Below, piece by piece: positions 3,616 through 44,914 of a stretch of 64,000 nucleotides of DNA; within the stretch, counting starts at the first letter, position 1; the number at the start of each line of letters is the position of its first letter. The position numbers were made by a program, and so were the translations under genes. The DNA is from an uncultured Verrucomicrobiota bacterium (GTDB taxonomy: Bacteria; Verrucomicrobiota; Kiritimatiellia; RFP12; UBA1067): the NCBI GenBank assembly GCA_945834475.1, contig CAMAHK010000003.1, positions 900-64,899 on the forward strand, given 5' to 3'. A model generated the notes under the pieces. It had not been told where the DNA came from, ran no database searches, and saw only the letters and a list, made by a program, of their open reading frames with translations.

Positions 3616-6081
3616 TTAACTCTCGCGGACTTCGACGCCGGCCGTCCCCTTCAGCGCATCGACGATACGCTGGAAGACCCGTCCGACCTCGTCATCCGTC
3701 AACGTCTTCTCGGCCGAGCGGAACTCGAGCGAGTAGGCGCGAGACGTCTTGAAGATATCAAAGAGCATCACCTTTGTCAACTCCTTGCCGCCGTTCTTGC
3801 GGATGACGTCCACGACCTGGTCGTTCGTGACACCCGTGCCGACGGTGATCGCGATGTCACGCTTCACCGACGGGAACTGCGGAACCGGCGAGACGCGACC
3901 CGTCTCGTTCGTCTTCTTGAGCAGCATCTTCGCCTCAAGCTCGCAGAGTGCCATCTGCGTCGTCAGACGGAACGGATGGCGAAGCTTCGCCGAGACCGCG
4001 CCGAGAACGCCGATCGTCTTGCCGTTGAGCTTGACCGAAAGCGCCGCCGCGAAGGCGGAATGGTCAACGGGCGCAAACTCGACGCGCCCCGCATGGAGCT
4101 TCGCGATGAGTTCCTCGACAATGCCCTTCATCCAAAGGACCGCTTCCTCTTCCGTCACCGCCGCGCGACGGCGAAGCGCCTCGCGTCCCACGGGACCGAC
4201 AAGACCGAGGGAGAGCATCTCCTTCTCGCAGGGAATGGAAGTCGGCGCCGTGTTTTGCTGGTCAACGCCGCGGCCGGGGACGGCTCGCGGTACGGTGTAG
4301 AACACCTTGCCCAATTCGAAGAGCATCGCCGACTCCTCGTGCGCCGCGTTGCGGCCGAGGGTCTGGTAGAGCTGCGGCAGCAGGCTGTCGCGCATGACAC
4401 CGTATTCCGCCGAGACGGGATCGGGAATGATGAGACGCGTGTCGCTCGCCCCCGCGAAGTCCTTGAGCTCCTTCTCCGAGAGGAACGAATAGTGCATCGC
4501 CTCCGAGAAGCCAAGCCCCATCGCAATCTCGCGCACCTTCGCCTTCGCGCGGAACGGTGCGTCGGAAAGCGGCGAGACGGACGGCGCGGACGGCATCGTA
4601 TCGGGAATGTTGTCGAGCCCGTAGAGACGTGCGATCTCCTCGACGAGATCGGCCTCCATCGTCAAATCCCAGCGCCAGGACGGAATCTCGAACGCAACGG
4701 ACTTCTCCGCCGCAAAACGGTCGAGCGTCGACAGCACCTTGAGGCCCAGCGACTGCAGGATGAACACCATCGCGTCGTTGCCGATGTCGATGCCGATCAG
4801 CTTGCGCGCGCGGTCAAAGTCGAGCGTGACGGGCTCGTTGGTGCCGTGCTCGCCCTTCACGCGATTGTCGATGTCAACGAGGCCCTTCGCGATCTTCGCG
4901 TGGCCGTACTGCTGCAGGAGGTGCGCGGCACGACGCGAAGCCGTGTCGGCGATGTCCTTGTCGACGCCGCGGATGTAACGGTAGGAGGATTCGCTGCCAA
5001 GGCCGAGCGTCGTCGCCGTCGCCTTGATCGTCGTCGGCTCGAAGAGTGCGCTCTCGAGCATCACCGTCTTCGTGCCGGGCGCAATGCCCGAGTTCTCGCC
5101 GCCCATCACACCCGCGACGGCGTTCGGCTTCTCGGCATCGCAGATGACGAGCATTGACGGATCGAGCTTGCGCTCGACGCCGTCCAGCGTCATCATCTTC
5201 TCGCCTTCCTTCGCGTCGCGCACGACGATCGTACGGTCCTTCAGCGTCGTGTGGTCAAAGGCATGCATCGGCGCACCGAGCTCGAGCATCACGTAGTTCG
5301 TGACGTCGACCGCAAGACCGAGCGAACGGACGCCGCAGAGCTCGAGGCGCTTGGCCATCCAGTCCGGACTCGGCGCATCGGGCGTCATCTCGGTGACGAC
5401 GCGGGCGGTGTACCGGAGGCACTTCGCGGGATTCTCAACAACGACCTTGACCTCCGAGTTGACGTCCGTCGCCTCTTCGGTGAAGTCGGTCGGCGGGAGC
5501 GTCAGCGGACGGTTCAGGATCGCCGCGTATTCGCGGGCGAGGCCGACGATCGAGAGCGCGTCGGGACGGTTCCACGTCACTTCAATATCAAAGACGACCT
5601 CGGGCTTCTCGAGCTTCGCAATGTCACGGACGAGCGCGCCGGTCGGGGTTTCCGCCGGATACTCGATGATGCCGTCCGCACCCTGGCCGATGTGGAGTTC
5701 CTTCTCGGAGCAGCACATGCCGTTGGACTCAACGCCGCGGAGCTTGCCCTTCTTGATCTTGAACTCGCCTTCGGGGATCAGCGCGCCGATCTTCGCGAAC
5801 GCCGTCTTGATGCCCTTGCGCATGTTCGGCGCACCGCAGACGACCTGATACTCGGTCGTGCCGTCCGTCACCTTGCAGACCTGGAGGTGATCCGAATTCG
5901 GATGCGCCTCGCATTCGAGAACCTCGACGACGACAATGAGATCCGAGAGCGGATCGCCGCCGACCGTGTCGATGGACTCCACCTGGAGTCCCGCACGCGT
6001 CAGCTTCTCCGCCAGTTCCTTCGGGTCGATGTCATCGACCTTCACATAATCATTCAGCCACGACAGGGGCAACTTCATCAT
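3616..6081 (-). CDS. pheT: Phenylalanine--tRNA ligase beta subunit
   Basis: 821-aa ORF with N-terminal MMKLPLSWLNDYV, a tRNA-binding domain, and B3/4, B5 and FDX-ACB-like regions. The alternative start at 6078 is equally possible. It carries a solo repeat arm at 4267-4293. Confidence 0.95.
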   Translation of the reverse strand: MMKLPLSWLNDYVKVDDIDPKELAEKLTRAGLQVESIDTVGGDPLSDLIVVVEVLECEAHPNSDHLQVCKVTDGTTEYQVVCGAPNMRKGIKTAFAKIGALIPEGEFKIKKGKLRGVESNGMCCSEKELHIGQGADGIIEYPAETPTGALVRDIAKLEKPEVVFDIEVTWNRPDALSIVGLAREYAAILNRPLTLPPTDFTEEATDVNSEVKVVVENPAKCLRYTARVVTEMTPDAPSPDWMAKRLELCGVRSLGLAVDVTNYVMLELGAPMHAFDHTTLKDRTIVVRDAKEGEKMMTLDGVERKLDPSMLVICDAEKPNAVAGVMGGENSGIAPGTKTVMLESALFEPTTIKATATTLGLGSESSYRYIRGVDKDIADTASRRAAHLLQQYGHAKIAKGLVDIDNRVKGEHGTNEPVTLDFDRARKLIGIDIGNDAMVFILQSLGLKVLSTLDRFAAEKSVAFEIPSWRWDLTMEADLVEEIARLYGLDNIPDTMPSAPSVSPLSDAPFRAKAKVREIAMGLGFSEAMHYSFLSEKELKDFAGASDTRLIIPDPVSAEYGVMRDSLLPQLYQTLGRNAAHEESAMLFELGKVFYTVPRAVPGRGVDQQNTAPTSIPCEKEMLSLGLVGPVGREALRRRAAVTEEEAVLWMKGIVEELIAKLHAGRVEFAPVDHSAFAAALSVKLNGKTIGVLGAVSAKLRHPFRLTTQMALCELEAKMLLKKTNETGRVSPVPQFPSVKRDIAITVGTGVTNDQVVDVIRKNGGKELTKVMLFDIFKTSRAYSLEFRSAEKTLTDDEVGRVFQRIVDALKGTAGVEVRES
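4267..4293. repeat. Class-1 palindromic element, solo arm (in pheT)
   Basis: GCCGCGGCCGGGGACGGCTCGCGGTAC matches the right arm of the argS copy at 25 of 27 positions. It is translated as TVPRAVPGRG. Confidence 0.6.
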
Positions 6082-7555
6082 TCTTCTCCTCTTCAGAAAT
6101 CAAATTCGTACCGTCGTGCGTCCCCGCCGACGGCGCGGTAACAGCCGCAACCTCAGTCTCCTCCGTTTCAGCGCCGCGGGCGAGACGCACCGCGGTACGG
6201 TCTTCGGCCTTCCGCTTCTTCCACTGCGGACCGTACTTCGGATTCTTCTCGACAGCCGAGTAGACGCCGTTCGTAAACGAGACCGCATGACCCGTCGAGA
6301 CGAGCCACTGGAGGTGCTTCTCAAAGTCCGCAATCTCCGCCGGGAACTCCGACTTGTCAAGGCACGGATGCGCATCGAGATACTTCGAAACGGCCGCGAG
6401 CTCGGGAATCGCGTGCTCGGCGTCAAACGGCTTCAATTCGGCCGCGACGACAAACTCGGGACCACGCGCCTCGTTCGCACGGAAGATATTGAGCTTGCGG
6501 TGATGGAATGCGCCGCGGAGAGCGTAGATCATCGCGTACGGTGCGCGGCGTTCGGCCGCAATCGCGTCGTTGACCGCCCAGACGAGCGGCTTCGCCGGCG
6601 ACGTCGCCGCGACGCTCGCCTTGATCATGAGGTGCTTCGGCTTGTCGACAAGCGACGGCAGGACGACACGCTTGAACTCGCCCTCGGCCTGTTCACGCGT
6701 CAGTTGCGCCGCGCCTTCGGTCTCGGCCTCGCCCTTGTGGAAGAAGACCGTCTTCTTGACCGCGCTCGCCCGCCACGCTTCGATGGACTCCGTATCCCGC
6801 ACCATCTCGATGCGGGAGCGATAGTCCGCCTCGGACATGTTCGGATACTTCGTGCGGATCATCTTCTTGACGACCGCGTTGAACTCATGGATGTTCGGCG
6901 GCCCCAAGAGGATGCCCGAAAGCCCGCACTTCGCGACGCACGTGAAATTGCCCTTCGGCGGCTCGCAGTCGATCTCCTTCGCATCGTAGTACTCGCCGAG
7001 ATGCGCCGAGAGGACGTGTTCGAGAACATCCTCTTCCTTCGTGGACGCAAAACCGCAGACTTTACACTGATAAAAAGAGGTTGAGGTCGAAGGTTGAGGT
7101 TGAGAACCCTGTGGAGCCTTAGGAGAAATCTTCAGGAGGATCGACTCGGGATTGTCGAGGAAGAAGTACGCGAGGTCCTTGAGCTTGTACGCGTGCGTGT
7201 CGCCCTGGATCTTGCGGATGATCGTGCCAAGCGCCTTCGTCTCGGGCAGGATCTTCACTTCGCACGCGAGCGGCTGCGGCTTCTCGAAACTCGGACGGTC
7301 GAAGCGCGGCTTATCGCCAAAAGACTTGCGCGGACGGTCCCCCATCGGCTTGCGCTCGCCAAAGGGCTTTCGGCCCTCGCCAAAGTTCCGACGCGGCTTG
7401 TCGCCACCGCCAAAACCCGAACGCGGCCGATCGTCCTCAACGCGTCCACGGCCGCCCTCGACCGTGACCTTCTCGTCTTTCTTGGCCCAAGCCGGCGTAA
7501 AGTCAAACGCCCCCAGAGAACCCAAGTCAATCGCATTAGTCTTTTCTTCGCTCAT
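6050..7555 (-). CDS. Hypothetical protein with an Arg/Gly/Pro-rich N-terminus and one classical C2H2 zinc finger
   Basis: I prefer the internal ATG at 7555 (MSEEKTNAIDL). The RG-rich stretch reads GGGDKPRRNFGEGRKPFGERKPMGDRPRKSFGDKPRFDRP. The finger is YQCKVCGFASTKEEDVLEHVLSAH (about 7001-7066). The 3' end overlaps the pheT start by about 30 nt. Confidence 0.7.
   Translation of the reverse strand: MSEEKTNAIDLGSLGAFDFTPAWAKKDEKVTVEGGRGRVEDDRPRSGFGGGDKPRRNFGEGRKPFGERKPMGDRPRKSFGDKPRFDRPSFEKPQPLACEVKILPETKALGTIIRKIQGDTHAYKLKDLAYFFLDNPESILLKISPKAPQGSQPQPSTSTSFYQCKVCGFASTKEEDVLEHVLSAHLGEYYDAKEIDCEPPKGNFTCVAKCGLSGILLGPPNIHEFNAVVKKMIRTKYPNMSEADYRSRIEMVRDTESIEAWRASAVKKTVFFHKGEAETEGAAQLTREQAEGEFKRVVLPSLVDKPKHLMIKASVAATSPAKPLVWAVNDAIAAERRAPYAMIYALRGAFHHRKLNIFRANEARGPEFVVAAELKPFDAEHAIPELAAVSKYLDAHPCLDKSEFPAEIADFEKHLQWLVSTGHAVSFTNGVYSAVEKNPKYGPQWKKRKAEDRTAVRLARGAETEETEVAAVTAPSAGTHDGTNLISEEEKNDEVAPVVAE
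6108..6198. repeat. Class-1 palindromic element, 91-bp doublet (in the C2H2 protein gene)
   Basis: GTACCGTCGTGCGTCCCCGCC ... GCCGCGGGCGAGACGCACCGCGGTAC. The spacer (GGCGCGGTAACAGCCG ... CTCCGTTTCAGCGCC) resembles the spacer of the 92-bp subfamily. It is translated as RTAVRLARGAETEETEVAAVTAPSAGTHDGT. Confidence 0.8.
7077..7104. repeat. GAGGTT-type simple repeat inside the C2H2 protein gene
   Basis: GAGGTTGAGGTCGAAGGTTGAGGTTGAG on the plus strand, translated on the minus strand as QPQPSTSTS. Confidence 0.7.
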
Positions 7556-10021: not shown

Positions 10022-10921
10022 ATGATCGTTTCCGTCATCATTCCCGTCTACAACGTCGCCCCGTATCTCCGCGCCGGCCTTGATTCGGTGCGCACCGCAG
10101 CCGAAAACCAGTCCGCGGCGACAGTCGAGATCATCTGTGTCGACGACGGGTCGACGGACGGGTCGACCGGAATCCTCGACACATCCCCCTCGCCTGCCGT
10201 CCCGCACACGCTCAAGGTCCTGCATTGTCCCCACCGGGGCGTTTCCGCCGCGCGCAACGCCGGATTAGACGCTGCCACGGGCGATCTCATCCTCTTTGCC
10301 GATCCCGACGACATGGTTGCTGCCGATTGGATCGCGAACCTGATCCGCGCAGCGGCCAACGCCGATCTCGTCTGGACGGGATACGCGCAGGACGGCATCC
10401 GCCACGAGCCCTCCGACGTCAACCAGACTTACGTCGGCGACGCAATCCGTCGCCGTCTCTGGCGCGCCGTCTTCGGCTACCGACTGCGCGATCTCGCGAA
10501 ACTGTTCCTTCCCGGAGGACTTTGGACGCGCTGCAAACGCGAAATGGCGGGCGTCTGGCGTTGTGCCGTCCGTCGCGAGACCCTTGGAGGTCTCCGCTTT
10601 GACCCAAGCCTGAGTCTTTACGAAGACGCGATGTTCATCACCGAACTGGCGACCCGCGCCCGCCGTCTCGGCGTTGTCGGGGACTGCGGCTATGACTGGC
10701 GCGTTCGCCCGACCGGCGCGATGTCCCGCGAATTCCGCGAGCGCGCCGTCGTCCACAAATTCGCCGTCCGCAACGTCCGCGCCCGGATCGACCCGAAGAA
10801 GACCCACTGGCGCGGCACATTCCTGCTCTCGGCTCTTGAGATCCTCAAGACCGCCGGCTTCGCCTGCGCGATCCGTTATCTCACGGGGAAAGACCCCGAC
10901 CTCACTTGCCGCCGAGCTTGA
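10022..10921 (+). CDS. Family 2 glycosyltransferase
   Basis: MIVSVIIPVYNVAPYL ... CVDDGSTDGS ... DPDD pattern typical of GT2. This is the only plus-strand gene I accept. Its 3' end overlaps the convergent gene by 20 nt. Confidence 0.8.
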   Translation: MIVSVIIPVYNVAPYLRAGLDSVRTAAENQSAATVEIICVDDGSTDGSTGILDTSPSPAVPHTLKVLHCPHRGVSAARNAGLDAATGDLILFADPDDMVAADWIANLIRAAANADLVWTGYAQDGIRHEPSDVNQTYVGDAIRRRLWRAVFGYRLRDLAKLFLPGGLWTRCKREMAGVWRCAVRRETLGGLRFDPSLSLYEDAMFITELATRARRLGVVGDCGYDWRVRPTGAMSREFRERAVVHKFAVRNVRARIDPKKTHWRGTFLLSALEILKTAGFACAIRYLTGKDPDLTCRRA

Positions 10922-13900
10922 GCCAGACGCGGAGAAGTTCCGAGTCGCTCCAGGCCTGAGCCGTGCAGCCCTTCTGGGCATGCGGCGCATCGCCGTCGGC
11001 GTTCTCGCTCACGTGACAGAGACAGCCCGCGTTGACGTTCTCGACGGCCGTCGCGAGAAGCTGCAGCGCAACCTCCTTCGAACAGCTCTTCGTCATCGCC
11101 AGGGCCTCCGCATAGAGCGGGAACGGCCACGCCCAGATCGTCCCGTTGTGATACGCGGGCTTCCGGCATGTGTCCTCGTCGCCCGCATAGACGCCGCGAT
11201 ACATCGGATGCTCCGCGTTGAGCGAACGGACTCCGCCCGGCACGAGCAGTTCCTCGGTCGCCGCGAGGATCGACTTGTCGTCGAGCACGCCCAGCGTGAT
11301 GAGAAAGAGCTGGTTCGGACGGATCGTGTCCTCCGGCTTCGCCAAAGCCGCAGGCTCCCCATTCGGTGCCGCGAGACAATCGTAGTACCCCGTACCGCGG
11401 TGCGTCTCGCCCGCGGCGTCTCCAAGCCCCTCTCCCCCAACCTTGAAATACTTCGTGACGCTGGCCAGCGCCTTCTCGGCGAGTTCCGTGCGTCCGAGGA
11501 AGCGAAGCGCCGAGATCCAGAGCGCCTGAATCTCGACCGGATACCCGATGCGCGGCGTACAGGCTGGATAGTTCGTATCCATCCACGTGAAGTGCGACGG
11601 CGACCAGATCAGCGCCGACTCCGGATCCATGTGAATCCCGTTCGGCGTCCCCGAGATGTAATGGTCGACAATCGACTCGCAAGTCTTTTTGAGCGTGGAT
11701 ATAGTACCCGGCGTGACCTCACGCCGAGGCGTGGTATCAGCCGACTGACTCAAGGCTTCCGTGTCAGCGCCACGGCGTGAGGTCACGCCGGGTACTTGAG
11801 ACACCTCTTGCACACAGCGGATGAACCAGAGCTGGGCGTCGGTCGTGTCGCGGTTGCCGGCCGTCTTGCCGTAGATGATGTTGGGAAGCGTCCCGTTCTC
11901 CTCGAACGCGGCGAACGCCTGAAGGATGCGCACGGAGTCCTCGATCTTCCCCGCGGCAATCATACCGCGCATGAAGATGAACGTGTCGCGTCCCCAGTCG
12001 AGGAACCACGGATACCCCGCGATCACGGTTTTCAAATCATCGCGTTTGACAATGAAGAGGTCCAGCGACTGCGCGAGCGCAGTCGCAAAAGACACCGTAC
12101 CGCGAGCGGCCTTCGGCTGCGTCGCTTCGCTCGGCTGTTTCTCGGCCGCGGCACTCTCCAAGACGCCTGTTGCCACGCCGCCGGCGAGGACGCTCGGCGG
12201 TACGGTGTTCAGCCCCCCTAGTATCTCCGCCGTCTCGCCGACCTTGAGGTCGGCCGAGATCCAGCCGGGCGAATAGAGGTCGCCCGAGCCGTCCTGTCCG
12301 CGCGCCGCCTCCTCGGCGTGCGACACGTTGTAGATCCACTCGGGCTCGTGGTGGTACGCGCCATTGACGACGCGCATCGCGAACGTCTCCCCATACGGCG
12401 CGAAGTCAAACCCCGCCGACGTACCCGCAGCCGTACCGCGGTGCGTCTCGCCCGAACAGCCGAGCGAAGCGAGACAGCCGCAGGCCGCGTCTCCAAGCCC
12501 ATCCCCGTTACCCGCCGCGGGCGAGACGCACCGCGGTACGGTTTTCTCCCTGAACAGCCCTTCCGCCCCACCATACGCCTTCGTCGTCGCATGGAAGCTG
12601 CGCCATTCGATGTCGGGACGGAACACAAGGCGAACCTGATCGCCGACATCGTCCTCGCCTGCGTCGCCGCGCGTCACGGTAAGCCGCGCGACATTGCCCT
12701 TCTCCAGCGCGAGTGTGAACGCAAAGGCAGTCTCACGGCCCATGCCGCACGGCACACGGAAGTCCCACGTCGCGAAGCGTCCCGCCGGATCGGCCGTAAA
12801 GCGCGTCACACACTTCATGTCGAGTTCGCGCACATAGCCCTCGCGCTGCAGCCAGCACCGTGTGCGCGCCCAGAGGTTGAGACGGTCGGACGGTACATCG
12901 GGATTCGGATTCGCCGCGAGCGTCGCGTCGTACTGGCTCGCAATCGAGCCCCAGGCGACGCGCAGCTGCGCCGCGGCCCCCTCGCCGTTCGAGAGGATCG
13001 TGCGCATCAGCGGATTCTTGCGCACCTCCTCACCCATCAGCGACAGCTTCACCTTCGCCTGACGCGAGCGCGGCGGGATCAAGAGTTCGGAGACCGTCCG
13101 CGTCGTCGCATGCGCGGCATAGACCGTCATTTTGAAGACCAGTCGCCGACACGCCGTGCCGTCGCCCTTATAGTGCGGCGCGTCAAAGGTAATGAGGTTG
13201 AGGTTAGAGGTTGAGAGATTGGTTGAAGACGAGAGGTTGGCGGGGACGGAGCGATAGGCGCGGATCGTCTTGCCGGTCGCCGGATCGACAATCTCGAGGC
13301 GGAAACGATGCGGCGCCGAAACCTCCAGAAGCTGGTTCTCCGGCACGCAGACCTGCCGCCGCGCGTCCCGCGGATACACCCAATGGAAGGTGTGACGAGT
13401 ACCCGGCGTGACCTCACGCCGAGGCGCGGTAACAGCCGACTGACTCAAGACCTCCGTGTCAGCGCCACGGCGTGAGGTCACGCCGGGTACTTCTTCCACG
13501 CACAGCACTTCGCCCGGCTTGAGGAACTCCTTGCCCGACAGGTAGCGCCGTTCTCCCGTGATGAGATCGGTGACCTCACCCCCCGGGAACTTCGCGGCGT
13601 CCCACGCGATCGTCGCGCCATTGGCGCAGTCGAGATTGGCGAGAATGAGAACCTTGTCAGCGCCTGTCGCCGAGACGGCGACGGTACGGACGACGGCAAG
13701 CGTATTACCCTCGCCGCGCGTCACGACCTCGAGGTGACTCGCGTTCGCGAAGCTCGGATGTGTCGAGAGAATCGCATTGAGCCGCGAAATGAGCGGCACC
13801 ATGTTGTTGGACGCGCCCCAGTTGAGGTCGTTCTTGCCGTGGACGTCGATCTTCTCGGTCGCGTACCACTCGACGCCATTCGCCATACCCCACGCGCCCT

Positions 13901-15116
13901 GCCACGAGAGCAGCGCGGCGAGCTGGACGCGCAAGCGCGCGTAAGTGACGCCGCTCTTCGCGAGGCGGTCGTTGTCGTGCGTTTCGGCGAAGTGGACGAG
14001 CGTGCCGAACTTCTCGGACCGCGCAATCGCTCCGGGCAGATACCACTCGAACGCGCCGCGGTCGTAGGTCTGGAAGATTTCCGAATACGCCCAGTCGAGA
14101 TTCGCCTCGGCGAGAAGCGCGTCCGTCACCTCGAGCTTGCCGCCGAGGCCCTCGAGCATGAAGACCGTGTCGGGATACTCCTCGCGGACACGCGCGACGA
14201 TGTATTCCCAGGTCTTGAGCGGGATCATGTACCCCGCGTCACAGCGGAAGCCGTCCACGCCATTCCGGCACCAGAAGAGGAAGACATCCGCCATGTAAGC
14301 GCGGAGTTCCGGCTTCGAATAGTCGAGCTCGACAAGGTCCGCCCACTTGACACCCCACGCGCCCGGCGAATGGAAGCGTCCGTCGGCCTCATGCGAGAAC
14401 CAGTCCGGATGATGCGTCTGCAGCGTCGATGCCCAGCCCGTGTGGTTCGCCGGCAGGTCAACGAAGAAGAGTCCCTCGCGGGCATGGACGGCGTCCACAA
14501 GCTCGCGGAACTGATCGAGCGGCGTCGCGAACTCGTCGAACTCGGCCATCGCCGGATCGACCGAGAAGAAGTCCGTCGCGGCGAACGGACACCCATACTC
14601 GCCCATCACCGCGTACGTCGTCGGCACGGGGAACGGCGGCAGCGTCTGAATGATCTTGAAGCCCATGTCGCCCATGATGAAGTCGAGCTTGCGGGCGACG
14701 GCACGGAACGAGCCAAACTGACGCGGGAAGACCGTGTAGATCGAGTTGTTCGTGCGCGTGTCGGCGCTCTCGACCTTGACGTGCGTGTTCGGACCCTCCG
14801 GCCACTCGGGTACGTTCGAGCCCTCCGGGAAGAAACAAGCCTTGCCAGAGAAGATACCGACCTCATTGAGCGGAATCGTCACGTGAAAGACGCCCGGCGC
14901 CGTCTCGGCCATCGGGATATCGGTCCACGCCCGCGCGAGCGGCGTCTCGCCGCGCTCGGTCTCGGCGATGATCTCGCGACGGCGGATGCGCGCGTTGCCG
15001 AGGTTCGTACGGAACGCGGCGCGTCCCTTCCGCGGCGCATCGAGGGTCAGGGTCACGTCAAGGGAATCACCGCGCCATTTGAGAATGAAGTCGTTAGTCG
15101 AGGGGAACTGGGTCAT
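10902..15116 (-). CDS. Bifunctional-type glycogen debranching enzyme (N-terminal GH13 alpha-amylase-family domain plus C-terminal GH133 amylo-alpha-1,6-glucosidase/GDE_C domain)
   Basis: 1404-aa ORF. GH13 signatures are GFRCDAGYMIP, FMLEGLGG and FAETHDN. GDE_C signatures are GYPWFLDWGRDTFI and GTIWAWPFPLY. It is interrupted in-frame by at least five palindromic repeat copies and one simple-repeat array. Confidence 0.85.
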   Translation of the reverse strand: MTQFPSTNDFILKWRGDSLDVTLTLDAPRKGRAAFRTNLGNARIRRREIIAETERGETPLARAWTDIPMAETAPGVFHVTIPLNEVGIFSGKACFFPEGSNVPEWPEGPNTHVKVESADTRTNNSIYTVFPRQFGSFRAVARKLDFIMGDMGFKIIQTLPPFPVPTTYAVMGEYGCPFAATDFFSVDPAMAEFDEFATPLDQFRELVDAVHAREGLFFVDLPANHTGWASTLQTHHPDWFSHEADGRFHSPGAWGVKWADLVELDYSKPELRAYMADVFLFWCRNGVDGFRCDAGYMIPLKTWEYIVARVREEYPDTVFMLEGLGGKLEVTDALLAEANLDWAYSEIFQTYDRGAFEWYLPGAIARSEKFGTLVHFAETHDNDRLAKSGVTYARLRVQLAALLSWQGAWGMANGVEWYATEKIDVHGKNDLNWGASNNMVPLISRLNAILSTHPSFANASHLEVVTRGEGNTLAVVRTVAVSATGADKVLILANLDCANGATIAWDAAKFPGGEVTDLITGERRYLSGKEFLKPGEVLCVEEVPGVTSRRGADTEVLSQSAVTAPRREVTPGTRHTFHWVYPRDARRQVCVPENQLLEVSAPHRFRLEIVDPATGKTIRAYRSVPANLSSSTNLSTSNLNLITFDAPHYKGDGTACRRLVFKMTVYAAHATTRTVSELLIPPRSRQAKVKLSLMGEEVRKNPLMRTILSNGEGAAAQLRVAWGSIASQYDATLAANPNPDVPSDRLNLWARTRCWLQREGYVRELDMKCVTRFTADPAGRFATWDFRVPCGMGRETAFAFTLALEKGNVARLTVTRGDAGEDDVGDQVRLVFRPDIEWRSFHATTKAYGGAEGLFREKTVPRCVSPAAGNGDGLGDAACGCLASLGCSGETHRGTAAGTSAGFDFAPYGETFAMRVVNGAYHHEPEWIYNVSHAEEAARGQDGSGDLYSPGWISADLKVGETAEILGGLNTVPPSVLAGGVATGVLESAAAEKQPSEATQPKAARGTVSFATALAQSLDLFIVKRDDLKTVIAGYPWFLDWGRDTFIFMRGMIAAGKIEDSVRILQAFAAFEENGTLPNIIYGKTAGNRDTTDAQLWFIRCVQEVSQVPGVTSRRGADTEALSQSADTTPRREVTPGTISTLKKTCESIVDHYISGTPNGIHMDPESALIWSPSHFTWMDTNYPACTPRIGYPVEIQALWISALRFLGRTELAEKALASVTKYFKVGGEGLGDAAGETHRGTGYYDCLAAPNGEPAALAKPEDTIRPNQLFLITLGVLDDKSILAATEELLVPGGVRSLNAEHPMYRGVYAGDEDTCRKPAYHNGTIWAWPFPLYAEALAMTKSCSKEVALQLLATAVENVNAGCLCHVSENADGDAPHAQKGCTAQAWSDSELLRVWLKLGGK
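11392..11429. repeat. Class-1 element, solo arm plus GTCTCCAAGCCC tail (in the debranching enzyme gene)
   Basis: GTACCGCGGTGCGTCTCGCCCGCGGCGTCTCCAAGCCC, translated as GLGDAAGETHRGT. Confidence 0.85.
11704..11795. repeat. Class-1 related 92-bp nested palindrome, copy 1 (in the debranching enzyme gene)
   Basis: Perfect 23-nt terminal inverted repeats GTACCCGGCGTGACCTCACGCCG / CGGCGTGAGGTCACGCCGGGTAC. Each arm is itself a palindrome (GGCGTGA-CC-TCACGCC). It is translated as VPGVTSRRGADTEALSQSADTTPRREVTPGT. Confidence 0.9.
12097..12203. repeat. Class-1 element, 107-bp doublet, type 2 (in the debranching enzyme gene)
   Basis: GTACCGCGAGCGGCCTTCGGCTGCGTCGCTTCGCTCGGCTG ... GCCGGCGAGGACGCTCGGCGGTAC. 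The first 55 nt are identical to the copy at 15374. Confidence 0.9.
12433..12539. repeat. Class-1 element, 107-bp doublet, type 1 (in the debranching enzyme gene)
   Basis: GTACCGCGGTGCGTCTCGCCC ... GGGCGAGACGCACCGCGGTAC are perfect 21-nt inverted termini. The internal module CAGCCGAGCGAAGCGAGACAGCCGCAGGCCGC is the inverse of the module in the type 2 copies. Confidence 0.9.
13194..13240. repeat. GAGGTT-type simple repeat inside the debranching enzyme gene
   Basis: GAGGTTGAGGTTAGAGGTTGAGAGATTGGTTGAAGACGAGAGGTTGG, translated as ANLSSSTNLSTSNLNL. Confidence 0.7.
13399..13490. repeat. 92-bp nested palindrome, copy 2 (in the debranching enzyme gene)
   Basis: It matches the copy at 11704-11795 at 88 of 92 positions by hand alignment. 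It is translated as VPGVTSRRGADTEVLSQSAVTAPRREVTPGT. Confidence 0.9.
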
Positions 15117-15165: not shown

Positions 15166-16119
15166 TTATTGCCAAAGGGATTTGAGATAGGCGAGGCCTG
15201 CGGCGAGTTCGGGTTCGGTGATGCCGGCGTGGGGTTCGAAAACGATGTGGCGCACCGTTTCGGCAAGCGGTTTCAGCGCGGCAAAATCGACCTTGCCCTG
15301 TCCCGGCGCGAGATGGTCATCGCCTCCGACCGAGTCGTTGATGTGCAAGCCCAACACCGTACCGTCCAGCCCCGTACCGCGAGCGGCCTTCGGCTGCGTC
15401 GCTTCGCTCGGCTGTTTCTCGGCCGCGGCGTCTCCAAGCTCCCCCGTACCAGCACCGCGGGCGAGGACGCTCCGCGGTACGAAGTTATGCCGAACAAAGT
15501 CATGCCCCGTGTCAAACCAGGGCTTCACCCAGTCGCCGCAAAGCTGACCGATCTCCCATTCGGCGGGGAAGCCCTCGAGATACGGCAGGTTCTCGAGCCC
15601 GAGCGTCACCTTGTTCGCCTCGAGGTCAGGCACAAGCGCGGCGAGTTCCTTCTTCGCAATGTCAATCATCTTGAGGCCGCGCTTCACGCGGCGACTGAAG
15701 TCCCAACGCGAGAAGCACCCGCGGCACATCACACGGCCGAGATGCAGGACAAGCGCGTCGGCCCCCATCTCCGCAGCAAAGCGGATGTTCTTGCGAATCT
15801 GGAACTGAGCCATCTTCCGCGCCTCCTCGTCGAACGAGGCGAGGTGGTAAAGTTCGGGATACCCCTGCGGTGCGGAAATCGGGACGGGACAAAATGCGTG
15901 CACAGACCCGACAGGCATCTCATCGAGCCGCGCCTTGAAGCCCTTCACTTGGAAATCCGTCGTATGGAAGCCGAGCTCCAACGCCTTGAACCCCAGACGG
16001 AGCGCCATATCGACAATCTCCTCCCCGGACTCCAGACGCCGATTGCACCAATTAGTCGAGAGCGCGAACGTCGCGCTCCACCGATTAATCGTCCCATTCG
16101 TCTTCCCGCTTTCTGTCAT
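15166..16119 (-). CDS. Sugar phosphate isomerase/epimerase (xylose isomerase-like TIM barrel)
   Basis: 317-aa ORF with ALELGFH ... ADALVLHLGRV ... LGLENLPY pattern. It carries a 107-bp repeat element at 15374-15480. Confidence 0.75.
   Translation of the reverse strand: MTESGKTNGTINRWSATFALSTNWCNRRLESGEEIVDMALRLGFKALELGFHTTDFQVKGFKARLDEMPVGSVHAFCPVPISAPQGYPELYHLASFDEEARKMAQFQIRKNIRFAAEMGADALVLHLGRVMCRGCFSRWDFSRRVKRGLKMIDIAKKELAALVPDLEANKVTLGLENLPYLEGFPAEWEIGQLCGDWVKPWFDTGHDFVRHNFVPRSVLARGAGTGELGDAAAEKQPSEATQPKAARGTGLDGTVLGLHINDSVGGDDHLAPGQGKVDFAALKPLAETVRHIVFEPHAGITEPELAAGLAYLKSLWQ
15374..15480. repeat. Class-1 element, 107-bp doublet, type 2 (in the TIM-barrel isomerase gene)
   Basis: It has the same GTACC...GGTAC termini and the same internal module as 12097-12203. 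It is translated as VPRSVLARGAGTGELGDAAAEKQPSEATQPKAARGT. Confidence 0.9.
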
Positions 16120-21789: not shown

Positions 21790-23112
21790 TCATTCACGCC
21801 CGTTTGACATCGTTTTCGGCAAAACCAAACTGACACTCGCGTTTTCGGGACGGAAGATTTCCGCCGCCACGGCCTGGACGTCGGCGGCTGTCACGCGCTT
21901 GATGGCCTCGACCTGTTCTTGCGGCATCACCAGGCGGTCAAACGAGAGCGCGGTGTTGCCGTAGAAGAAGAGCTTCGACGTCACCTTCTCGTGCGAGAGC
22001 CGGAAATTGCCAACAAGGAACTCCTTGATGCGCTTGAGCTCCGTCACCGAGACACGCTTCGCCACCAGCTTCTGCAACTCCCGGTCGATCGTCGCACGGG
22101 CCTTGTCGCCCTTCGCGGCGTCGAGTCCCGCCGTGATCGAGAGAAAGCCCGCATCCTGAAAGAACTGCATCCGCGAGGAAATGTCATAACTGAGTCCGCG
22201 CTTCTCGCGCACTTCCTGAAAAAGCCGGCTTGACATGCCACGTCCGAGGATCGCGTCCAGCACCGTCGCCGCGTACTTGCGCTCGTCGTGGATGCCGAAC
22301 GTGCGATACCCGAGCGCGAGCTGCGCCTGATTGACATCCTTGCGCGCGACGACTTCGGGGGTCGGAGGAAGGAGAACTGCGGAAGAAATGTTTTTATTCC
22401 GACGCGACAGGAGTGTCGCGTCCCCGGCTGGCGTGGACAATGGGGACGCGACACTCTTGTCGCGTCGCAACAAAGATTTCCCACCTCTTTCCCCCAGAGC
22501 CCGCGCGACGACGTCAAGCGCCATCTCGGGCTCGAATGCGCCGACGACGACGGCTATCGTGGCCGTCGGCAGGTAGTGCGCCTTGATATACTGGCGCAAG
22601 TCGTCCGGCGTCAGCGGTCCGAGCGACTTCGCACTGCCGGCGACGGGACGCCCGAGAGGATGCTTCGGGAAGAGCGCGGCCTGCAGGTTCTCCATCGCGA
22701 CGCAGTCCGGCTCGTCCGCATACATTTTGATTTCCTCGATCACGACATCCTTCTCGCGTGCGAACTCGTCAGCGGGAATCGTCGCGTTGAGGTACATGTC
22801 GGAAATGATGTCGACCGCCTCCTCCAGATACTCGCTCGGCAAATGCACGAAGTAGCAGGTCGATTCCTCGCCCGTACAGGCGTTGAAGTTGCCGCCACGT
22901 CCTTCGATCGCCCGCGTGATGTCGATCGGGCGCCGCGTGGGCGTCCCCTTGAAAAGCATGTGTTCGATGAAATGCGAAATGCCAGCCGTCTTCGCCGTCT
23001 CATGGCGCGAGCCGGACGCAATGAAGAGTCCGAACGCAACGGACTCCGCTTCACAGGGAACCAGCACGACTCGAAGGCCGTTGGATAGAATGTGTTGCTG
23101 AGGACGATTCAT
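21790..23112 (-). CDS. M16-family (pitrilysin-like) zinc peptidase
   Basis: HFIEHMLFKGT zinc-binding motif (HxxEH) in a 440-aa ORF. It is interrupted by a 68-bp palindromic element at 22400-22467. Confidence 0.9.
   Translation of the reverse strand: MNRPQQHILSNGLRVVLVPCEAESVAFGLFIASGSRHETAKTAGISHFIEHMLFKGTPTRRPIDITRAIEGRGGNFNACTGEESTCYFVHLPSEYLEEAVDIISDMYLNATIPADEFAREKDVVIEEIKMYADEPDCVAMENLQAALFPKHPLGRPVAGSAKSLGPLTPDDLRQYIKAHYLPTATIAVVVGAFEPEMALDVVARALGERGGKSLLRRDKSVASPLSTPAGDATLLSRRNKNISSAVLLPPTPEVVARKDVNQAQLALGYRTFGIHDERKYAATVLDAILGRGMSSRLFQEVREKRGLSYDISSRMQFFQDAGFLSITAGLDAAKGDKARATIDRELQKLVAKRVSVTELKRIKEFLVGNFRLSHEKVTSKLFFYGNTALSFDRLVMPQEQVEAIKRVTAADVQAVAAEIFRPENASVSLVLPKTMSNGRE
22400..22467. 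repeat. Class-2 68-bp nested palindrome (in the M16 peptidase gene)
   Basis: CGACGCGACAGGAGTGTCGCGTCCCC ... GGGGACGCGACACTCTTGTCGCGTCG. Each arm contains GCGACA..TGTCGC. It is translated as RRDKSVASPLSTPAGDATLLSRR. Confidence 0.9.
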
Positions 23113-23951
23113 AAAACCTTAACAAGGCCGACCGCCGCGGAGTAGCCCGCACCGAAGCCGGCGATCAAGGCTGTGGCTCCGCCGGTCGGGATGCGGTCCG
23201 TGTTCGTCGCAAGCGTCAGCGGAATCGAACAGCTCCCCGGATTCTTGAGCGCGGGATCGAGCGTCAGGAGTTGCTCCGTGAGGCCGAGAGCTTTCGCAAG
23301 CTGGCGGACCATGTAGGGGTTCGCCTGGTGGGGGATGAAGAGCGCCGCGCCCGAGGCTGGCCGCGGTACGGCGCTGGTCACGAAGCGATCCAGCATCGCC
23401 TTCACTTCGGTCGCCACGAAGGTGAAGACCTTCATGCCATCCATATGGATCGGACCCGTCGCCGAGCAGGTCAGCGCATCGTCGGCGCGCGAGAGAAAAT
23501 CGAAATAGCTCTTCTCCGTCGCTGTCGCATCGGACGAGATGACGCTCACGGTCATCGCGTCGGAAAAGATCTCGCCCGTCGCGTGATCGGCGCGATCGAC
23601 GAGCGGCGTCTGGCAGTCGCCGTTGACGACAAGCACCTTCTTGCCCGTATCCGCCGCGAGGCGTCCCGCGAGATAGACGGCGTACGGATACGCGCTGCAG
23701 GCCATCTGCAAGTCAAACGCCGGCGTTGAAGGCGAAAGGCCGAGCTCCGCGGCGACGCGCACCGCCAATGAGGGAAAGCGCTCGGGATTCGAAAACGTCG
23801 CGGCAATCACCCCGCCGACGTTCTCGACGGGCCCGAGGGACTGAAGGGCTTCACGAACAAGGGCAAGATGGCCTGGAGACGCCGCGGGCGAGGCGCACCG
23901 CGGTACGGAATAAGAAACCTTCTCAATGACAACAAGAGGAACTTCCACCAT
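23109..23951 (-). CDS. KAS-III (FabH)-like condensing enzyme, short form
   Basis: Cys (MACSAY), His (IPHQANP) and Asn (NPGSCSIP) triad context plus C-terminal GFGAGYS. ATGA overlap with the M16 peptidase gene. A repeat arm lies near the N-terminus. Confidence 0.7.
   Translation of the reverse strand: MVEVPLVVIEKVSYSVPRCASPAASPGHLALVREALQSLGPVENVGGVIAATFSNPERFPSLAVRVAAELGLSPSTPAFDLQMACSAYPYAVYLAGRLAADTGKKVLVVNGDCQTPLVDRADHATGEIFSDAMTVSVISSDATATEKSYFDFLSRADDALTCSATGPIHMDGMKVFTFVATEVKAMLDRFVTSAVPRPASGAALFIPHQANPYMVRQLAKALGLTEQLLTLDPALKNPGSCSIPLTLATNTDRIPTGGATALIAGFGAGYSAAVGLVKVL
23875..23906. repeat. Class-1 element, solo arm (in the KAS-III-like gene)
   Basis: GGAGACGCCGCGGGCGAGGCGCACCGCGGTAC, translated as VPRCASPAASP. 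Confidence 0.8.
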
Positions 23952-32168: not shown

Positions 32169-33139
32169 AACCCCATCAGCTTTTTCGCCGCCGCAAATTG
32201 CGCGGACAGATCGACCTTGCGCGATCCGTCGACATAGCCGTCAGCGCGCAAGTTCTCGACGAAGCGACGAAACTTGTGCGAACCCGGATTCAAGTTGTCG
32301 AGCGCCACAACCTCGGCCGAACCAAAGGTACAGGCCTCCGAGAGCATCCCCGTCGACTCGGCCGTCACGTAAAGCCGCTTCGCGAGTTTCACGAACGCCG
32401 GAATCGGATTGAAATGATCCTTCGAATAGAGAAGCTTGTAGTCCCACGGATACGAGTCGATCAGCGCCTCGATCTCCGGCGGCGTCCGGCGCGAGGTTGT
32501 GACACAACGGAGAATTGGCGAATTGCCGAATTGGCGAATTGCCGAATCGGCGAAGATTGCATCCAATTCGCGTTTCATCCAGTCGACGGACATCGTCGAG
32601 CACTTATTGGGGCCGCCGACGATCACGGCGACGAGCGGACGCGCCGCGACCTGGTCGGCGGTGAAGCCGCTGTGGTTGTAGAACGCCGCGACGCCCTTCT
32701 CGTAGAACGCCGCATCGGCCGCGACGAGGTTCGCCGGAATCTCGATCACGTTCGGCGCCGCCGCGGGACGGTCGAACGCCGGCGCGAGCACGCAGTCGAA
32801 CGACGCGATGTCATACCCGCGCGGATAGAGAACGGCGCCGCACGTGACGCCCAGCTTCTTCGCCAGCGCCTTCGCGGCATAGAAGGTTCCCGACCCGGTG
32901 CCGATCACGGCGACAAACGCCGTACTGCGGCGCGTCTCGCCCGCGACGCTCTCCCACCCCCTCACCAGACCAAGCGCCCTAATGCCCAGGCGGTCGCACG
33001 CATACGAGAGCGCCTTGTGGAACTTGGACTTGAACTGCACGGGAACGATCTCGAACTCACAACCAAGCGCACGGGCAAAGGCCTTGGACTGGTTTTCGTG
33101 TCCGGCCTTGCCGTCAGTCAGAATCAGAACCTTAGACAT
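32165..33139 (-). CDS. ELM1/DUF1022-family protein (putative glycosyltransferase-like)
   Basis: I prefer the ATG at 33139 (MSKVLILTDGKAGHENQSKAFARALG). The track start is 33157. It contains the octamer-repeat insertion at 32511-32560. The family call is from memory. Confidence 0.65.
   Translation of the reverse strand: MSKVLILTDGKAGHENQSKAFARALGCEFEIVPVQFKSKFHKALSYACDRLGIRALGLVRGWESVAGETRRSTAFVAVIGTGSGTFYAAKALAKKLGVTCGAVLYPRGYDIASFDCVLAPAFDRPAAAPNVIEIPANLVAADAAFYEKGVAAFYNHSGFTADQVAARPLVAVIVGGPNKCSTMSVDWMKRELDAIFADSAIRQFGNSPILRCVTTSRRTPPEIEALIDSYPWDYKLLYSKDHFNPIPAFVKLAKRLYVTAESTGMLSEACTFGSAEVVALDNLNPGSHKFRRFVENLRADGYVDGSRKVDLSAQFAAAKKLMGL
32511..32560. repeat. Octamer tandem array (AATTGGCG/AATTGCCG)n (in the ELM1-like gene)
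   Basis: AGAATTGGCGAATTGCCGAATTGGCGAATTGCCGAATCGGCGAAGATTGC with 8-nt periodicity. It is translated as IFADSAIRQFGNSPILR. Confidence 0.85.
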
Positions 33140-41007: not shown

Positions 41008-41751
41008 TCAAGGCTTGAAATAAAGGCGGCAGTGACAGAGTCCATGGTAGTTTGGATCTCGGAGCTGGCCCTTGAACTCGTCGCAGGGGCAGAAGAACTC
41101 CGGCAGTTTCTGCAGCCGGCACGGACAGAACGCGTTCTTGCGCACGACGCCCTGCCGCACCATCGCCGCGAGCTTCGCGTCTGGATTGAGCGTCACGCCG
41201 TTCTTCGCAAAAAGCTCACGGATCTCCGTTGACGACTCCTTCGTCCGGGGATACGCCTTAAACGTCACCAGCTTCTTCAGCTCGTCAATGTCCTTCCACT
41301 TCGGCAGTCCCTCGACCGAGTCCTCGCCGATGATTAAGTAGAGGTGGAGAGAAGAGGTGGAGGTGGACAAAGGAGCATATTCTTCCTTGATTTCCCGCAC
41401 GGTGTCGATCGTGTACGAGACGCCGCCGCGCTTCAACTCGCGGTCGTCGACCACCACGCGCGGATCGTCGGCAAACGCCGCCTTCACCAGCTCCAGCCGA
41501 TCCCAGGGGAACTCCGTACCGCGGCCCGCGGCGTTGTCTTCCGTACCGCGGTGCGTCTCGCCCGCGGCGTCACCAAGCCCGCTGTTACCCGCCGCGGGCG
41601 GGACGCACCGCGGTACGGTCTTGAACGGACTCACGTTCGCCGGAATGACGATGAGCTTATCGAGCTTCAGCTCCTCAAGCGCCTTGCGGGCGACCGTCAG
41701 ATGCCCGAAGTGAATCGGATTGAAGCTTCCCCCGTAAATGCCAATGTTCAT
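41008..41751 (-). CDS. nadD: Nicotinate-nucleotide adenylyltransferase fused to a C-terminal ferredoxin:thioredoxin-reductase-catalytic-subunit-like Cys motif
   Basis: I prefer the ATG at 41751 (MNIGIYGGSFNPIHFGHL). It has ESSTEIR (ISSTxIR-like). The C-terminal part is FCPCRLQKLPEFFCPCDEFKGQLRDPNYHGLCHCRLYF (41029-41127). It carries two repeat insertions. Confidence 0.85.
   Translation of the reverse strand: MNIGIYGGSFNPIHFGHLTVARKALEELKLDKLIVIPANVSPFKTVPRCVPPAAGNSGLGDAAGETHRGTEDNAAGRGTEFPWDRLELVKAAFADDPRVVVDDRELKRGGVSYTIDTVREIKEEYAPLSTSTSSLHLYLIIGEDSVEGLPKWKDIDELKKLVTFKAYPRTKESSTEIRELFAKNGVTLNPDAKLAAMVRQGVVRKNAFCPCRLQKLPEFFCPCDEFKGQLRDPNYHGLCHCRLYFKP
41338..41368. repeat. GAGGTGGA-type simple repeat inside nadD
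   Basis: GTAGAGGTGGAGAGAAGAGGTGGAGGTGGAC on the plus strand, translated as STSTSSLHLY. Confidence 0.7.
41516..41616. repeat. Class-1 element, composite of about 101 bp (in nadD)
   Basis: GTACCGCGGCCCGCGGCGTTGTCTTCC + GTACCGCGGTGCGTCTCGCCCGCGGCGTCACCAAGCCCGCTGTTACCCGCCGCGGGCGGGACGCACCGCGGTAC. It is translated as VPRCVPPAAGNSGLGDAAGETHRGTEDNAAGRGT. Confidence 0.9.
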
Positions 41752-42576: not shown

Positions 42577-42586
42577 TCACCACCTC

Positions 42587-42622
42587 GCAATTCGCCAATT
42601 CGTCAATTCGTCAATTCGCCAA
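42587..42622. repeat. Octamer tandem array (GCCAATTC/GTCAATTC)n, intergenic between the S1 gene stop and the proC start
   Basis: GCAATTCGCCAATTCGTCAATTCGTCAATTCGCCAA is the reverse complement of the unit at 32511. Confidence 0.85.
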
Positions 42623-43408
42623 TTACAACTTATCAAACGCTCCCGTCCCGAAGCCCGCGTTCTTCTTCGCGTTGTCCTTCATCCACGCGGCGACCTCCTC
42701 GGCGGACTTCGCGGCCGCCTCGTCCTCGGGCGTACGCCTGAACGTCCGCGCCATGCACTCCTTGCGCGAAAGCGTCACCTTGCCCTCCTCGCGGTCGATG
42801 TGCAGGATCTTCACCGTAATCGCATCGCCGCTCTTGAGAATCGTGTTGAGGTCGTCGACGCGCTCCCACGCGACTTCACGCGCGGGGACGAGTCCCTCGA
42901 CGCCGCCGAGGTCGACGAACGCGCCGAAGTTCATGACGCGCGTCACCGTGCCGTTCAGCGTCTCGCCTTCGGTGAGCTCGTTGAGGACGGCCTCCTTGAG
43001 CGCCTCGGCCTGGAGCTCCAGGAGCTGACGGCGAGAGACGACGACGTTGAGTCCGCGGTCGTCGACCGAGTAATCGGTGACGAGAAACTCGAACTTGCGT
43101 CCGACGTACTCCGCGGCGTCCTTCTTGAACTTGTCGATCTGGCTAAAGGGACAGAACGCGCGCTGGCCGGCGATCGTCACTTCGTAACCGCCCTTCGTCT
43201 CCTTGTCGACGACGCCCGCAATCGCCTCGCCCTGCTCGAACGCCGTCTTGATCGCCGCGTTGTCATTCGAGTCGACGACGAGCGTCTTCTTCTCGGGGCG
43301 CACGAGGGACTTGTCCTCGTTGAACGCCTTGCCGAACTTGTAACCCTTGCGGATGCCGCCGAACTGAGCGTCAAGCATCGCACCGAAATCGAAAGAATTA
43401 TTATCCAT
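42623..43408 (-). CDS. S1 RNA-binding domain protein (two S1 repeats)
   Basis: GEAIAGVVDKETKGGYEVTIAGQRAFCPFSQ and GETLNGTVTRVMNFGAFVDLGGVEGLVP S1 signatures. Confidence 0.8.
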   Translation of the reverse strand: MDNNSFDFGAMLDAQFGGIRKGYKFGKAFNEDKSLVRPEKKTLVVDSNDNAAIKTAFEQGEAIAGVVDKETKGGYEVTIAGQRAFCPFSQIDKFKKDAAEYVGRKFEFLVTDYSVDDRGLNVVVSRRQLLELQAEALKEAVLNELTEGETLNGTVTRVMNFGAFVDLGGVEGLVPAREVAWERVDDLNTILKSGDAITVKILHIDREEGKVTLSRKECMARTFRRTPEDEAAAKSAEEVAAWMKDNAKKNAGFGTGAFDKL

Positions 43409-44900: not shown

Positions 44901-44914
44901 GCAAAATCCTTTGT

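Follow-up and report, generated by a model that had tools for sequence, protein, structure and literature searches.

Probable REPIN-like palindromes with a GTAC tag inside a debranching enzyme gene of an uncultured Kiritimatiellia bacterium

What are two near-identical, 92-bp nested palindromes within the reading frame of a single enzyme gene, and how did they come to be there? The gene lies in a 64,000-nt stretch of contig CAMAHK010000003.1 (GCA_945834475.1) from an uncultured member of the Kiritimatiellia (Verrucomicrobiota), hereafter the window, and its open reading frame (ORF) encodes a debranching enzyme that is read through both elements. Our analysis indicates that the 92-bp elements are very probably inverted doublets of a repetitive extragenic palindromic (REP) sequence, resembling the REP doublets forming hairpins (REPINs) of other bacteria. 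The repeated unit, a GTAC tag with an 8-9-bp hairpin and a short tail, is associated with a REP-associated tyrosine transposase (RAYT), and has probably spread or been exchanged in a gene-dense genome. An earlier, sequence-only reading of the locus had described nested palindromes of one superfamily, which stands, and had recognised neither their REP/REPIN identity nor the cognate RAYT.

Of the 92 positions, 88 are the same in the two copies (11704-11795 and 13399-13490), each of which is bounded by a perfect 23-nt terminal inverted repeat (TIR), GTACCCGGCGTGACCTCACGCCG; both figures, as first reported from the letters alone, were confirmed by recount. In the window, the four arms are the only exact occurrences of this 23-mer (expected 0, 100 shuffles), and complementarity of the arms reaches 29-30 nt at 97%. 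Every arm of this kind, which we call the A arm, contains an 8-bp hairpin, CGGCGTGA-CC-TCACGCCG, and in copy 1 the GTAC tags of both arms lie at the outer ends. DNA and RNA folding bore out the expectation that the arms are palindromes able to form one long or two small hairpins. The A arm alone folds at -9.6 kcal/mol (DNA), and the entire 92-mer forms a single long hairpin, at -68.8 and -72.0 kcal/mol for the RNA of the two copies (z -10.0 and -8.5) and at -44.2 and -45.6 kcal/mol for the DNA (z about -10.3). The arms are perfectly conserved between copies, all four differences falling in the spacer, and three of the four alter an amino acid. Both copies are read as VPGVTSRRGADTE[A/V]LSQSA[D/V]T[T/A]PRREVTPGT, a predicted translation of 31 residues, and the Pfam domains support a debranching-type enzyme as product of the host gene.

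At the assembly level both copies are real: the two 92-mers are found exactly, together with the exact 1404-aa protein, in contigs of three other assemblies produced with different assemblers (ERZ11448883, ERZ978717 and ERZ8810629). ERZ978717 is a pig metagenome and carries 18 single-nucleotide polymorphisms elsewhere within the 6.2-kb locus; one further assembly is 100% identical to window 25446-47962. An Rfam scan of the whole window returned no family at gathering score, and scans of viral contigs with both arm types of the window gave 0 matches and no sign of phage origin. A role as terminator or promoter is unsupported, the sole terminator-like match in an element being antisense and at background frequency.

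The A unit also flanks transposase genes in related genomes. We scanned the A-arm 20-mer across 185,579 species, one genome each, and obtained 60 stretches, 49 of which (102 matches) belong to one Kiritimatiellia metagenome-assembled genome (MAG), LOHA43_bin.016. The remainder are single or double matches scattered over unrelated taxa, and the window genome's own species is not among the GTDB representatives matched. This MAG encodes a RAYT-like protein (locus L054) that matches NCBIfam REP_Tyr_transpos at E 2e-17 (63 bits) and Pfam Y1_Tnp at 23.4 bits (cutoff 23), and its sole PDB match is 4ER8, the E. coli TnpA-REP, with the HUH motif (HLH) and the catalytic Tyr (YVWANP) aligned. The gene is bracketed on both sides by AGTACCCGGCGTGACCTCACGCCGTGGCGCTGAC, which from GTAC on (33 nt) coincides exactly with the opening 33 nt of the window element, read on the coding strand. 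Database homologs of the protein number 42; JGI labels several of them RayT, and most lie on ~1-kb contigs, which would be expected were the repeats to break the surrounding assemblies. Seven more RAYT loci were fetched, and all eight, L054 included, are bracketed by their own hairpin followed by GTAC, with stems that co-vary with the protein. One of the seven, P0124 (67% identical to the L054 protein), is flanked by CGCCACGGCGTGAGGTCACGCCGGGTACTT, which matches window 11767-11796 exactly; the other six are 49-57% identical. A Y1/HUH gene directly flanked by an A-type REP is present both at L054 and at L066/L067, and the GTAC tag is invariant across all arm types and the eight RAYT loci. Judged by these sequence comparisons, the GTAC-REP superfamily is specific to a Kiritimatiellia clade and paired with a predicted clade of RAYT (HUH/Y1) proteins.

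Within the fetched pieces of LOHA43, 159 A arms were counted at up to three mismatches, as same-strand singlets and 40-nt tandem arrays. The unit there and in L077 is mostly extragenic or at gene ends; in L077 it lies 3 nt past a stop codon. Many LOHA43 contigs end in A-unit arrays, and in one stretch of the same MAG (L007, 4800-5560) 40-nt arrays are embedded in a ~190-nt higher-order repeat with a second GTAC hairpin (GTACCCGCAGCGCCCTCGCTGCGGG). A scan of JGI metagenomes gave 0 matches to the spacer GGTANCAGCCGACTGACTCAAG and one to the full arm, an extragenic singlet; that collection essentially lacks the window population. Querying proteins with the 31-aa peptide in doubled form recovered only P0163, a 75-aa ENA fragment, and missed P0001, a result uninformative for copy number. 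P0163 contains VPGVTSRRGADKSGLDMPRREVTPGT, an A-type doublet with a shorter spacer and the same frame in an unrelated, unannotated protein fragment.

Returning to the window, a second arm, the B type (GTACCGCGGTGCGTCTCGCCCG), was found 13 times in the 64 kb (0 expected), and the A arm 4 times. The B arm has a 6+3-bp stem (-11.1 kcal/mol) and is laid out as singlets, inverted doublets and three tandem 39-nt units; extra variants were found by self-comparison and by a GTAC-plus-hairpin scan of the window. Altogether ~17 sites of the superfamily are present, every one inside a called gene, and no extragenic copy was found in the 64-kb window. At least ten window genes besides the debranching gene carry relatives of its inserts, among them those for PheT, a 501-aa hypothetical protein, an AP endonuclease, FabH, an Elm1-like protein, MutS, a CTP_transf_like protein, ArgRS and Dus (Table 1). 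Spacers between inverted arms of the window doublets measure 34-46 nt. The co-occurrence of singlets, tandem units and inverted doublets points to the behaviour of REPs, bacterial interspersed mosaic elements (BIMEs) and REPINs, not to that of a MITE (miniature inverted-repeat transposable element).

That the two arm types form one superfamily had been proposed from the letters alone, and the common GTAC tag, hairpin position, element length and tail modules agree with it. The accompanying claim of a spacer common to the 92-mers and the 6108-6198 element was accurate at both ends, GCGGTAACAGCCG and CTCCGT(G/T)TCAGCGCC, and failed in the centre, where ~12 nt differ; about 28 of 41 positions match, counted by eye on alignment A4. 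The REP of the RAYT P0135, GTACCGTCGGCGTCTCGCCGACTGGCGCGGTAACAGGC, shares its GGCGCGGTAACAG tail with window spacers and is similar to the B arm as well as to the 6108 element; it was also the closest match when a RAYT bracketed by an exact B-type arm was looked for and not found.

Coding density in the window is about 94-98%, and nearly all genes lie on the minus strand; gene calls on two co-linear contigs give an estimated non-coding fraction of about 5.7% and 2.2%. Because of this common gene orientation, any strand bias of the repeats is inseparable from that of the genes. From 48 to 64 kb, no superfamily copy was seen.

The debranching gene itself holds six REP-derived inserts, amounting to ~150 aa or ~11% of the enzyme; the two 92-mers in the ORF had been noticed before, and the other four had been missed. 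The nearest homologs of the 1404-aa protein come from Kiritimatiellia MAGs, and the closest insert-free ortholog, P0002, has 1276 aa; the ~150 insert-encoded residues account for the 128 residues by which the 1404-aa protein exceeds it. Of the smaller inserts, the one at 13664-13687 is two mismatches away from the REP flanking RAYT P0135, and the module at 12097-12203 has a near-identical counterpart at 15374-15480 in the neighbouring AP-endonuclease gene.

Table 1. Coordinates of the host gene, its inserts, related sites in the window and the RAYT-like gene of locus L054
Feature	Position	Strand	Remarks
Host ORF, fused alpha-amylase + GDE_N + GDE_C (amylo-alpha-1,6-glucosidase type)	10902..15116	-	1404 aa; Pfam
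Copy 1, probable A-type REP doublet (REPIN-like)	11704..11795	-	arms 11704-11726 and 11773-11795; aa 1108-1138
Copy 2, probable A-type REP doublet	13399..13490	-	arms 13399-13421 and 13468-13490; aa 543-573
Peptide GADTEALSQSADTTPR			predicted; encoded within the 92-mer
Single B-type REP unit (GTACCGCGGTGCGTCTCGCCCG + tail)	11392..11430	-	read GLGDAAGETHRGT; not in orthologs <=88% identical
REP doublet, variant arms (GTACCGCCGAGCGTCCTCGCCGGCGG ... CCGCTCGCGGTAC)	12097..12203	-	read TVPPSVLAGG...AAAEKQPSEATQPKAARGT
B-type REP doublet, 24-nt perfect arms	12433..12539	-	read VPRCVSPAAGNGDGLGDAACGCLASLGCSGETHRGT; -77.6 kcal/mol
Single GTAC-hairpin unit (GTACCGTCGCCGTCTCGGCGACAG)	13664..13687	-	read TVAVSATGA; variable loop
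Related 91-bp doublet, B-type/L073-like arms	6108..6198	-	near C-terminus of 501-aa hypothetical protein
B-type doublet	41543..41616	-	CTP_transf_like gene
Further superfamily site	4266-4294		PheT
Further superfamily site	15374-15480		AP endonuclease
Further superfamily site	23885-23906		FabH
Further superfamily site	32922-32943		
Further superfamily site	36785-36806		MutS
Further superfamily site	45233-45306		ArgRS
Further superfamily sites	47004-47071 and 47498-47614		Dus, three tandem 39-nt units
RAYT-like gene	L054 5904-6689	-	LOHA43; HUH motif MPNHLHIL and YxxxNP tyrosine motif

Six-frame translation of the 92-mer places stops in five of six frames, with a TGA within each arm in two frames per strand and, for the third plus-strand frame, one in the spacer. 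Both copies are read in the sole open frame, which accounts for their common orientation and frame. Measured from tag to tag, the doublets span 92, 107, 74 and 107 nt, all 2 mod 3, such that each adds a whole number of codons when one flanking base is included; the exception is the 91-nt element at 6108, which is read in another frame than the other B-type sites. The B-type arm is stop-free in every frame, yet it is read as GETHRGT/VPRCVSP at eight of nine independent sites, which suggests an extra filter for a benign peptide rich in Gly, Ala, Thr and Asp. Against such a filter, some alternative frames of full B-type doublets do contain stops, and the statistic is only suggestive.

The earlier proposal to map the insertion points on a structure was carried out on two AlphaFold2 models built from 43-sequence alignments, each of moderate quality with a predicted template modelling score (pTM) of 0.75 and a mean predicted local distance difference test (pLDDT) of about 72. 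Both inserts are modelled as coil with pLDDT below 50 between ordered elements. Copy 1 lies between two helices of the GDE_C barrel (model residues 404-417 and 447-466, corresponding to aa 1093-1106 and 1136-1155), with pLDDT below 50 at model residues 425-442. Copy 2 connects the last strand of the amylase C-domain (537-542) to the first strand of GDE_N (577-580), with pLDDT below 50 at 546-573. Similarly, the inserts at 12433-12539 and 12097-12203 fall below 50 at model residues 180-207 and 290-316, respectively; some other low-confidence segments are not repeat-related. Overall, the models support a location of the copies in predicted disordered loops or a linker.

Comparison with orthologs bears on whether the segments are ancestral. 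The enzyme was aligned with 16 homologs, 15 of which are orthologs at most 88% identical (70-88% in alignments A1-A3), and both 31-aa segments are lacking in all 15 of these. Their occurrence in distant homologs, which would have argued against insertion, was thus not seen. The segments sit in alignment columns where many lineages bear unrelated insertions of their own. In alignment A1, the orthologs P0072 and P0095 have repeat-like peptides of their own in these variable loops (NRPIDQSTNPTNRPIDQS, PHLSSLTSH and AGNVC repeats among them), and it appears that repeat DNA specific to one lineage or another generally collects there. As judged from the alignments, the 31-aa segments are insertions and not ancestral sequence, being missing in the 15 orthologs and, in the case of copy 2, also in a closely related strain.

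That strain, represented by contig L001, shares about 98% nucleotide identity (1.5% divergence) with window 951-25049, ~24 kb. Copy 1 is exact in L001, and the copy-2 site is occupied by a different composite of GTAC-bounded CCGCGG-type (B-type) units. Two further repeat polymorphisms were noted, an extra FabH doublet near window 23351 and a 30-nt difference in the element near 15458. All three (~23351, ~15458 and 13390-13602) adjoin, on one side, a 50-100-nt patch of 12-41 mismatches per 100 nt, a density reached elsewhere in the 24-kb alignment in only two intergenic regions. These patches could be recombination tracts, the mark of mutagenic insertion or excision, or fast-evolving loops. The L001 comparison supports copy 2 as the probable younger, or more labile, of the two. 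At 4.3%, the difference between the copies exceeds the divergence between strains, and for this reason it is improbable that copy 2 arose very recently by direct duplication of copy 1. The sequence-only reading had suggested recent spread or gene conversion; the variable copy-2 site is in keeping with this, whereas very recent direct duplication of copy 1 is not the simplest interpretation.

Several other origins for the copies must be weighed against a RAYT-associated REP doublet. Homologous recombination or gene conversion could have placed copy 2 by replacing a resident REP, with copy 1, a further copy in the genome or a divergent strain as donor and the GTAC-hairpin arms or the gene flanks as homology. 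We consider this possible, if on the whole unlikely, and it concerns the mode of spread only, not the identity of the elements. The presence of another GTAC-bounded composite at exactly the copy-2 site in L001 speaks for it, as do the high-substitution patches beside all three polymorphisms, which imported tracts would leave, and the perfect conservation of arms around a spacer that differs at four positions. Nonetheless, the 4.3% divergence makes it unlikely that copy 1 was the direct donor in a recent conversion, and recombination leaves unexplained both the spread of the family to at least 17 sites in unrelated window genes and the identical units bracketing RAYT genes. Much less probable are classical MITEs, that is, deletion derivatives of DDE-type insertion sequences (ISs) mobilised via the 23-nt TIRs, with the TA in GTAC as the possible duplicated target in the manner of IS630/Tc1-mariner. 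Perfect TIRs, a length of 92 bp, no coding content of their own and a G-TA-C at the start and end of every copy fit that description, and in-frame MITEs are reported in Coxiella (PMC5896051). However, half-elements, same-strand tandem units and 40-nt arm arrays are common, and a TIR-dependent transposase would not yield them; the G and C around the TA are invariant within the repeat; and the arm hairpin is identical to repeats that bracket Y1 (RAYT) genes. No DDE transposase or IS was seen in the window or the related loci, and no target duplication either, the empty sites being too divergent to define one.

It is more improbable still that the 31-residue segments are selected protein modules, such as linkers or binding motifs, that were duplicated at the protein level with the palindromy incidental. 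The segments are in frame, hydrophilic and in loops, as such modules would be, but the symmetry resides in the DNA and not the peptide, three of four nucleotide differences change the residue, around RAYT genes this DNA unit is non-coding, in L077 it lies 3 nt past a stop, and the segments are lacking in all orthologs at most 88% identical. An assembly artefact, namely a repeat-induced chimera, can hardly be entertained: repeats of this family do break assemblies, and many LOHA43 matches and RAYT contigs end in them, but the exact protein with both 92-mers is found in three other assemblies from different assemblers and the reading frame is intact across both copies.

The assignment to a REPIN-like, RAYT-associated family has its own difficulties, which count against it and are best taken together. 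The tag here is GTAC, and the canonical REP tag is GTAG. The L054 protein scores below the curated NCBIfam cutoff (63 versus 80 bits) and barely reaches that of Pfam. None of the 159 LOHA43 arms forms an inverted pair within 160 nt, apart from fragment P0163 the A-type doublet is seen in the window lineage alone, and mobility of the doublet as a unit is deduced from just two copies. The 64-kb window contains no RAYT gene (tblastn best E 0.35). Finally, comparison with L002 DNA, which encodes a 79%-identical ortholog, defined neither a clean empty site nor a target duplication, the loops being too divergent.

Palindromes of this general kind have precedents. Work on REP/RAYT (TnpA-REP) was reportedly published by Nunvar in 2010. 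REP/REPIN-RAYT systems are by now well described (Bertels & Rainey 2011, PMC3116915; PMC3337134). As in the REPs, BIMEs and REPINs of E. coli and Pseudomonas, a tetranucleotide tag stands beside a 7-9-bp GC-rich hairpin, and the units form singlets, tandem clusters and inverted doublets, the doublets folding as one long hairpin; likewise, a Y1/HUH gene is bracketed by cognate repeats with a stem that co-varies with the transposase. In contrast to the extragenic REPs of those species, the window copies are all intragenic and predicted to be translated, and the tags of the doublets face outward, unlike there. E. coli TnpA-REP is also distant from the Kiritimatiellia RAYT clade (E 8.6e-5), which falls below the NCBIfam cutoff. 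Degenerate tags GYAG, GTRG, GTMG and GTGG have been listed, and GTAC is not among them (PMC3733652).

Intragenic GTAG and CGTC REPs are known as well, commonly as dimers encoding 20-30 aa and with two in some ORFs (PMC3733652). Di Nocera et al. (2013) found intragenic REPs to be most numerous in Opitutus terrae, a bacterium of the Planctomycetes-Verrucomicrobia-Chlamydiae (PVC) group, with repair and tRNA genes among the hosts (PMC3733652). The present system shares with O. terrae a PVC host and singlets, dimers and groups inside ORFs of known function, and with O. terrae and other bacteria the use of DNA-repair and tRNA-related hosts, here MutS, ArgRS, PheT and Dus. It differs from O. terrae in the GTAC tag, the stems and the host class, Kiritimatiellia, and the load is much heavier, with six inserts and about 11% of one enzyme. 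A further parallel is offered by the Rickettsia palindromic elements (RPE-1 and relatives), which Ogata et al. are said to have described in 2000. These are ~100-bp palindromic selfish DNA in frame in housekeeping genes, translated and tolerated on the protein surface, with presence or absence varying between close relatives. They differ in being AT-rich, in the obligate intracellular alphaproteobacterial host and in having, to our knowledge, no known dedicated transposase. Their tag is CGTC (PMC3733652). The Coxiella burnetii QMITEs resemble the window elements as short, non-autonomous inverted-repeat elements that reportedly add protein residues (PMC5896051). MITEs differ in deriving from DDE-type ISs and in moving as whole TIR-bounded units with target duplications; unlike them, the arm here is an autonomous hairpin unit that also occurs solo or in tandem and is linked to a Y1 transposase. 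Our literature search found no paper linking Kiritimatiellia to such repeats. The novelty lies in the GTAC tag, the RAYT clade, the host class and the insert density; the principle itself was known, and this is no new class of element.

By analogy with E. coli TnpA-REP and IS200/IS605, the hairpin and tag in single-stranded form would be the recognition site at which a RAYT cuts and rejoins DNA, a reaction by which singlets, tandem units and doublets could be spread or exchanged. On the same analogy, a RAYT probably moved the present copies, and the window genome presumably still encodes one. In a pig-gut host with about 2-6% intergenic DNA, most landing sites would be intragenic, and selection would keep only in-frame, stop-free insertions in surface loops or inter-domain linkers. 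The inserts are presumably translated and harmless; no protein function of the 31-residue loops is evident, as three of the four nucleotide differences change the residue. The L001 composite at the copy-2 site, with the adjoining patches, fits either resident REPs as preferred targets or replacement by recombination. One may speculate further, though we regard the idea as doubtful, that GTAC-REPs are specialised for intragenic life through coding-compatible sequences, with resident REPs as landing pads for RAYT-driven or recombinational cassette exchange and, as a result, regular diversity of loops and linkers. A swap of one REP type for another is seen at the copy-2 site between the near-identical strains.

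Other repeats share the window with this superfamily. A second palindromic family (22393-22474 and 37391-37456), unrelated to the first, has arms CGACGCGACA(A/G)GAGTGTCGCGTCCCC and stems that end in CGTC, with no GTAC tag; it is in frame in a Peptidase_M16 and a MutS gene, read RRDKSVASP...GDATLLSRR. In P0005 and P0012, GDE orthologs of 68-69% identity, very similar peptides (RDRNVASPL, KGDATFLSRE) are repeated several times, and this family is therefore spread across distant Kiritimatiellia. Short oligonucleotide repeats are also present, of the AGGTTGAGGT type (7078-7103, 13185-13230 and 44914-44939), the AGGTGGAG type (41342-41367 and 59585-59610) and the AATTGGCGAATTG type (32512-32547 and 42587-42624). 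Some copies fill entire intergenic spacers (44901-44949, 42577-42622), and others occur within ORFs, as does NLSSSTNLSTSNLNL in the debranching enzyme.

Overall, these observations extend the REP/REPIN-RAYT system to the Kiritimatiellia, with a different tag (GTAC) and a distinct clade of putative RAYTs, and they present an unusually dense case of selfish palindromes inside essential enzymes, with six in the debranching enzyme and more in MutS, ArgRS, PheT, FabH and Dus. Annotators and builders of protein families should expect repeat-derived, lineage-specific "loops" of 10-40 residues in these MAGs. GTAC repeats fragment assemblies, and their presence or absence between 98%-identical strains is a fine-scale strain marker. 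If GTAC-REPs were indeed specialised for life inside genes, REP turnover would regularly generate loop and linker diversity in housekeeping enzymes.

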